Shown here: positions 39,572 to 39,736 of the stretch, in pieces
How the letters are laid out: every line of letters starts with the position of its first letter
Numbering within the stretch: position 1 is the first letter of the stretch
From: Escherichia coli
GTDB taxonomy: Bacteria; Pseudomonadota; Gammaproteobacteria; Enterobacterales; Enterobacteriaceae
Length of the DNA: 64,000 bases
Direction: 5' to 3' (one strand)
Assembly: GCF_044324875.1 (NCBI RefSeq)
Contig: NZ_CP172185.1
Notes under the pieces: generated by a model
What the model was told of the DNA's origin: nothing
The model's database searches: none
The model's input: only the letters and a program-made list of their open reading frames with translations
Program-made: the position numbers and the translations under genes

Positions 39572-39609
39572 GTTAAGGATTGTGGGCTTGCCCCTGGGCA
39601 TATAAGAAC

Positions 39610-39647
39610 GTAGGTCGGATAAGCCGCCTTCGCGGCGCATCCGACAC
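39610..39647. repeat. REP element between nuoL and nuoM
   Basis: gtaggtcggataagccgccttcgcggcgcatccgacac, flanked by an outer inverted repeat (ggattgtgg ... ccacaatcc). Confidence 0.8.
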
Positions 39648-39736
39648 TACAACCACAATCCGAAGAGAATTTTCTGTCGTGAGAATTCGTTGAAAATCCG
39701 GTCCTGACGGGACTTTTACAAGGAATAAAGATCGCC

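Follow-up and report, generated by a model that had tools for sequence, protein, structure and literature searches.

The window analysed here is a stretch of 64,000 nucleotides of Escherichia coli DNA, in which the nuo operon lies on the + strand, from nuoA, beginning at 27704, to the end of nuoN at 42730. The positions of nuoL (37730..39571, + strand; 613 aa, with the stop codon UGA at 39569-39571) and nuoM (39737..41266, + strand; 509 aa) were taken from the list of open reading frames and from the RefSeq annotation of identical E. coli DNA. Measured from these coordinates, the two genes are 165 bp apart, and this gap is the largest among the nuo junctions, as the initial annotation had stated. 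The range of 2-50 bp that it gave for the other gaps holds for most of them, which are overlaps or spacers of 2-46 bp, but not for nuoB-nuoC, where the spacer is 93 bp and the second largest. The nuoB-nuoC spacer (28826-28918) contains an 8-bp inverted repeat (28833-28840 and 28892-28899), and an 'orphan' Term-seq 3' end reported by Adams et al. 2021 at K-12 position 2403873 corresponds to about position 28913 of the window; a detected RNA 3' end is present in this spacer, unlike in that between nuoL and nuoM.

The nuoL-nuoM gap contains a Y-type REP on the + strand at 39610-39647 (GTAGGTCGGATAAG...CATCCGACAC), the core stem of which is formed by arms at 39614-39627 and 39632-39645 according to both the repeat search and the predicted MFE pairs. 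The palindrome (GTAGGTCGGATAAGCCGCCTTCGCGGCGCATCCGAC) has the properties of a REP: the GTAG/CTAC head is adjacent to it, its 14-nt arms are 86% complementary, and it lies entirely inside the spacer, i.e., outside the genes. It is also multi-copy, since its head and stem recur in three Y-type copies at 1631, 1722, and 1813 of the window, where Z2 copies are present as well. The GTAG head (39610-39613) pairs with CTAC at 39647-39650, with which the hairpin covers 39610..39650 of the + strand; this pairing lengthens the REP hairpin by 4 bp in those E. coli sequences that were examined, and is not found in the orthologue of Citrobacter sp. R56. At 1579-1850 the window carries a BIME-2-like array of three alternating Z2/Y REP pairs, downstream of an ORF that ends at 1571. 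A permissive Rfam scan, run on the gap and on the O157 allele (see below), gave sub-threshold matches to REP-derived naRNA4 and, apart from these, only chance matches to miRNAs.

The REP is nested in a second inverted repeat, as had been proposed, and this outer repeat is perfect over 9 bp. Its 5' arm, GGATTGTGG (39577..39585, + strand), begins 6 nt past the nuoL stop codon and is 100% complementary to the 3' arm, CCACAATCC (39653..39661, + strand), which was delimited by the repeat search and which, on comparison of the E. coli alleles, varies more than any other stretch of the gap. The repeat had thus been recognised correctly, but its arms had been placed 2 nt (5') and 1 nt (3') too high. 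The + strand sequence at 39588..39609, between the 5' arm and the REP, consists of the remnant of a second, inverted REP and a spacer (ttgccc^ctgggcatataagaac), as recognised by alignment to the Citrobacter R56 locus (L014); a small hairpin is left at 39589-39600.

When the REP was held fixed and both flanks were shuffled, a perfect flanking repeat of at least 9 bp was obtained in 0.76% of 20,000 trials. Such a repeat is unusual for one REP, but a few are expected among the hundreds of REPs in the genome, and the value is therefore suggestive and, from sequence alone, not decisive. It is nevertheless extremely improbable that the 9-bp repeat arose by chance, or that the REP matters in DNA, as a gyrase site. 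A frequency of 0.8% per REP is not negligible genome-wide; the recurrence of the arms in at least four genera, however, contradicts a chance match in one strain. As for gyrase, y-type REPs within BIME-2 are its preferred sites of cleavage and BIME-2 arrays bind it (PMC6379681), but the element considered here is a single decayed REP rather than a BIME-2 array, and nuo does not appear in the main text of that gyrase map paper.

The RNA of the gap is predicted to fold at -61.2 kcal/mol (z = -4.3; 0 of 200 shuffles were equally stable), the REP being closed by the outer stem. Each of the nine outer pairs has a predicted probability of ~1.0, and the outer stem is likewise predicted at ~1 in each allele tested. 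This folding had been suggested as a check, and its outcome bears out the nested arrangement. The 85-nt module has a predicted energy of -44.3 kcal/mol against -31.9 kcal/mol for its interior alone, the outer stem contributing about -12 kcal/mol. With the first 15 nt of the gap blocked, the REP hairpin is kept in the predicted fold, while the outer stem cannot form.

The origin of the structure may be derived from its orthologues. In the pairwise alignment with Citrobacter sp. R56, the window sequence ttgccc plus ctgggcatataagaac corresponds to a complete second, inverted REP and its spacer, from which 17 nt are missing internally; the intact doublet is present in four orthologous loci (L014, L137, L008, and L010). 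The two REPs of the R56 locus, and likewise those of a Citrobacter metagenome contig (L137), are intact and are predicted to pair together, with the outer arms as the base of one hairpin of ~100 nt. Because the intact orthologous REPs pair and the outer arms form the base of their hairpin, the E. coli structure is identified, through these alignments and predicted folds, as a decayed head-to-head REP doublet of the BIME/REPIN type, of which the basal stem survives. The spacer before GTAGG is similar to the one that separates Z2 from Y in the BIME array at 1579-1850 ('tagaacc gtagg').

The outer arms themselves behave differently from a BIME or REPIN, in which the ends recur elsewhere together with the rest of the unit. 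A query that consisted of the two flanks only, run against 4,699 E. coli genomes, found one place per genome, and in E. coli the arms therefore do not belong to a dispersed repeat. They may be an original part of the inserted element, or they may belong to an older hairpin that received it. The 3' arm of the window matches that of Citrobacter R56 (..AAAACCACAATCC..), and because of this match it is more likely the older form. A template-switch origin of this arm from the 5' arm was also considered; it fits the C-to-A change but not the extra 'AA', and was rejected.

The allele spectrum was surveyed in 5,426 complete E. coli genomes, 4,699 of which have a REP-type spacer. The flanks of the window with the perfect repeat occur in about 320 genomes (~6% of 5,426), and an intermediate allele with the 3' arm CCCCAATCC in 164. 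The K-12-like allele (CCCCAGTCC), which is imperfect by one U·G and one U×C, is the most common (about 4,215 genomes, ~80%). In the K-12-like and intermediate alleles, the outer stem is predicted to survive as 6 bp plus a shifted 3 bp.

An unrelated spacer of 230 bp, composed of a small hairpin and an ERIC-like element of ~118 nt, is found in 724 of the 5,426 genomes (~13%), including O157:H7; the median number of diverged copies of the ERIC-like element per genome is 4. The O157-type spacer (L002/L087, EDL933) and that of Salmonella enterica subsp. arizonae (L007) are identical, with zero mismatches over ~312 bp. The mismatch-free patch extends from 8 nt before the nuoL stop codon to nt 73 of nuoM (window 39563-39810), and the flanking coding DNA differs by 6-19%. 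From these sequences, the patch looks like a very short inter-genus recombination tract that replaced the REP module. One genome, E. coli O157:H7 TR01 (L086, locus 151-380), has a chimeric spacer, which is of K-12 type up to GTAGG, of O157 type in its ERIC-like middle, and of K-12 type again in the nuoM leader; it may be a true recombinant, or an artefact of assembly or polishing.

Among 79 species-level Enterobacterales loci, the nuoL-nuoM spacer ranges from 24 to 289 bp, and the element is therefore dispensable. The minimal spacers (24-41 nt) contain only the ribosome-binding region of nuoM. Spacers of 76 nt (in Enterobacter, C. werkmanii, and Atlantibacter) have kept the nuoM leader, and the whole REP module, including the arms, is absent from them. 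A canonical ERIC is found in four Serratia spacers (L055, L056, L072, and L080) and an ERIC-like MITE of ~118 nt in roughly two dozen other loci; further loci contain REP singlets, REP doublets, or nothing. Arms that enclose REPs are also found in Klebsiella oxytoca, K. michiganensis, Superficieibacter electus, two Citrobacter alleles, and the metagenome contig L137, and the enclosed REPs belong to each genus's own type. Three different spacer alleles occur in three Citrobacter relatives (L011, L012, and L137) whose coding DNA is ~95% identical. Exact look-ups of NuoM gave four identical gaps in Klebsiella and, in Citrobacter, just the two alleles already found. In a metagenome scan with the 16-mer GAAGTGAATTTTCTGT, one of the 120 stretches among the matches listed (L137) represents the locus, and the others are chance matches.

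A lack of conservation of the outer repeat had been named as a finding that would count against the proposed role. A degenerate form of the repeat is in fact kept across strains and genera; the whole module, on the other hand, is missing from 13% of E. coli and from many relatives, and this absence argues against an important role.

The 3' part of the gap is the nuoM leader (39662..39736, + strand). In it the block GAATTCGTTGAAAATC is conserved, 39700-39714 form an apical hairpin, and the Shine-Dalgarno sequence AAGGA lies at 39720-39724, partly paired with 39685-39691 in the MFE pairs and the consensus fold. Specifically, the conserved block is predicted to pair with the region of the Shine-Dalgarno sequence, AUUC at 39685-39688 with GAAU at 39723-39726, the latter overlapping AAGGA. 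In a consensus fold calculated for 13 leaders, the apical hairpin exhibits covariation from C-G to U-A across genera. The ERIC-like element of other genera is located at the 3' foot of the nuoM leader hairpin (leader 39679-39735), with GGAC on both sides.

To assess the conservation of the arms, a hand-built alignment of nine distinct sequences was used. In it, 84% of the cells pair and five pairs are changed on both sides; the observed covariation is reached by 2 of 500 shuffles, and slid registers pair at only 34-48%. Among the two-sided changes are the replacement of U-A by C-G in Superficieibacter and that of G-C by U-A in Citrobacter NCU1, and double changes are found at arm positions 1 and 4. 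There are also three one-sided changes, all from A to G, and all three yield a G·U pair, which is possible in the sense strand only. Arm position 7 is weak, being U-A in the window, U×C in most (~80%) E. coli, U·G in Klebsiella and L137, and C×A in R56. The arms and the 74-nt leader are 91-92% identical between E. coli and Klebsiella or Citrobacter, against 66-79% at the third codon positions of the flanking genes (91% against 66-72% in the comparison with Klebsiella).

These observations bear on the possibility that the outer helix is a locus-specific RNA 'shell', kept by selection across genera while the REP cargo is swapped for that of the host type, so that the nuoL stop and the nuoM leader stay functionally adjacent and both nuoL termination and the leader keep working; the nuoM leader hairpin could then be a second shell. 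The same arms do surround different genus-specific REPs, the double changes and the three sense-strand G·U pairs could point to a helix maintained in the sense RNA, and the high identity of arms and leader could reflect constraint. Several points, however, weigh against it. Horizontal exchange of the spacer is demonstrated, as far as sequence identity can do so, for the O157/Salmonella allele and is suggested by the three alleles of the Citrobacter relatives, and much of the similarity across genera may therefore be due to common descent from a circulating allele. In ~80% of E. coli there is a mismatch at position 7, and no empty pair of arms was found in the loci compared. In quasi-palindromes, moreover, template-switch repair can yield compensatory changes without selection. 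The covariation of the arms is therefore only suggestive evidence of selection for pairing in the sense RNA, and a selected helix of this kind is considered distinctly improbable.

The initial annotation had proposed that the compound structure could pause transcription or alter the expression of nuoM and nuoN. No support for this was obtained from sequence signals or from transcript data. The scan for promoters and terminators gave 0 terminators in 39400-39900 and no promoter-like site. The hairpin also differs from an intrinsic terminator in that no U-tract directly follows the stem, the nearest UUUU being 11 nt past it. Among the 3' ends listed for K-12 by Adams et al. 2021, none lies in 2392900-2393299, which includes the nuoL-nuoM spacer (2393042-2393204), while elsewhere in nuo 3' ends are found inside nuoN, nuoL, and nuoG, plus one in the nuoB-nuoC gap. 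Data on 3' ends at this junction had been named as a means of checking the proposal, and for the K-12 allele they bear against a pause. These data, like the decay data considered below, refer to the K-12 allele with its imperfect outer stem rather than to the perfect-repeat allele of the window.

A nested hairpin at which RNA polymerase pauses or partly terminates, with less transcription of nuoM-nuoN as a consequence, is on these grounds very improbable. The predicted RNA structure is very stable, and BIMEs attenuate transcription in some contexts (Espeli et al. 2001, as cited in PMC6061677); but the missing U-tract, the empty terminator scan, and the gap's lack of any listed Term-seq 3' end all stand against it, and translation of nuoM begins 75 nt downstream, which would leave little room for the loading of Rho.

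The same data may be considered with respect to a stabiliser of the malE-malF type. In this case the transcript would be cleaved in the AU-rich leader, the REP and the outer stem would block 3'-5' exonucleases, nuoA-L would outlast nuoM-N, and the ratio of the subunits would shift. It is established that REP hairpins hinder exonucleases and that many stable 3' ends are marked by them (PMC6061677; PMC5927463); the module is predicted to be very stable, and GAAUUUUC and GAAUUC just downstream of it fit the RNase E motif RN|WUU. The defining signs of a malEFG-type stabiliser, a stable 3' end and a longer half-life upstream, are nevertheless missing from the published data for the K-12 allele. No 3' end in the gap is among those listed in the K-12 Term-seq data, though four others are within nuo. 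In the study of Dar and Sorek 2018, nuo was among the 390 operons analysed, and among the table entries listed it is neither differentially decaying nor associated with a protective structure or an RNase E site. In addition, alleles without the module are common. NuoL, NuoM, and NuoN are single-copy subunits of one complex, and unequal output would therefore be without obvious benefit. A stabiliser of this type is accordingly regarded as quite unlikely.

An action on translation is also to be considered, in which a structure close to the stop codon stalls or releases terminating ribosomes and either lowers NuoL or uncouples the translation of nuoM from that of nuoL. Structures after stop codons (ribosome termination structures, RTS) are enriched at intercistronic distances of 25 nt or more, and restrict re-initiation (PMC7518266). 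By this definition an RTS is present in silico, with a stem 6 nt after the UGA, a module of -44.3 kcal/mol, and a gap of 165 nt. REPs, for their part, down-regulate translation only if fewer than 16 nt separate them from the stop codon (Liang et al. 2015, as cited in PMC12306157); the outer stem lies within this distance, and it is this stem, not the REP hairpin, that is predicted to be lost when the first 15 nt are blocked. The REP proper, however, begins 39 nt after the UGA, and at +6 there is only the outer stem, which is not a REP. This stem is 9 bp long, and 6 + 3 bp in most E. coli, and should be easily unwound by the ribosome; moreover, structureless gaps of 24-41 nt work in relatives. 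A translation-level element of this sort is therefore unlikely. Read-through of the UGA and a SECIS-like role were considered as well and set aside, because only 13 codons would be added by read-through before a TAG is reached, and no other observation points in this direction.

The reading that we hold to be somewhat probable is that a selfish REP doublet has left a remnant, the present module, which is tolerated in a permissive spacer with a fast turnover. The module would fold on itself, and any insulation after the stop codon or barrier to decay that it provides would be mild at most. It is transcribed within the nuoA-N mRNA and is predicted to form a self-contained branched hairpin of 85 nt (about -44 kcal/mol) between the nuoL stop codon and the nuoM leader, the latter being separately conserved and having its own Shine-Dalgarno sequence. 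By holding the insert folded on itself, the outer stem would leave the nuoM leader undisturbed. Because the stem starts 6 nt after the UGA, a ribosome that terminates at nuoL would have to open it, melting the 5' arm. As for effects at the RNA level, we infer that they would be small: at most, the module would serve as a ribosome termination structure, leaving nuoM reliant on de novo initiation, and would weakly impede 3'-5' exonucleases.

The REP itself is a standard element, and the occurrence of REPs in the spacers of operons is textbook knowledge. The module resembles the REP/BIME elements of E. coli (Y-type PU, BIME-2-like Z-Y pairs, and REPIN doublets) in being an extragenic, GTAG-headed, imperfect palindrome with multiple copies (the three near-identical Y REPs within 1631-1850), in having at orthologous loci a head-to-head partner REP and a short BIME-2-like spacer, and in the occurrence of genus-specific REPs at a conserved position. 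It differs from them in that the partner REP is mostly deleted at nuoL-nuoM, and in that the hairpin is extended by a 9-bp stem that is single-copy, specific to the locus, and outside the dispersed repeat.

With the REP stabilisers of malE-malF and hisJ-hisQ it shares a REP hairpin between two genes of one transcript, which could in principle block exonucleases; in contrast to those systems, where the upstream 3' ends are stable and the demand for subunits is unequal, the nuo subunits are equimolar, and neither a 3' end nor differential decay is reported for K-12. Its likeness to RTS (Chemla et al. 2020) and to near-stop REPs (Liang, Rudd and Deutscher 2015) consists in a stable predicted structure 6 nt after the stop codon and a spacer longer than 25 nt, but at nuoL only the 9-bp outer stem is near the stop codon, and the REP is 39 nt away. 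The ERIC and ERIC-like MITEs of other Enterobacterales represent another palindromic intergenic repeat in the same gap, which makes the spacer a permissive landing site. They differ in family and in position, which is the 3' foot of the hairpin in the nuoM leader and not the stretch directly after the stop codon.

A literature search for work linking nuoL, nuoM, and REPs found none, the papers in which nuoL or nuoM occurs together with 'intergenic' being irrelevant. The nested stem and its recurrence across genera thus seem to be undescribed, yet they fit known REP/BIME biology.

The structure is real and predates E. coli, and it is an ordinary feature, with no sign of control of nuoM-nuoN in the K-12 data or in the natural variants. 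Its regulatory importance is probably small, because NuoL, NuoM, and NuoN are in equal demand, natural alleles without the module exist, and the K-12 transcript data are blank at the site. Its value is descriptive, as a case of a REP doublet decaying in place while a long palindrome's base remains as a 'nested' stem, and as a record of the turnover of one operon spacer among close relatives, including the patch of ~312 bp that O157:H7 shares exactly with Salmonella arizonae. The three alleles that occur naturally in E. coli constitute a ready-made experiment on whether intra-operon REPs have a measurable effect.
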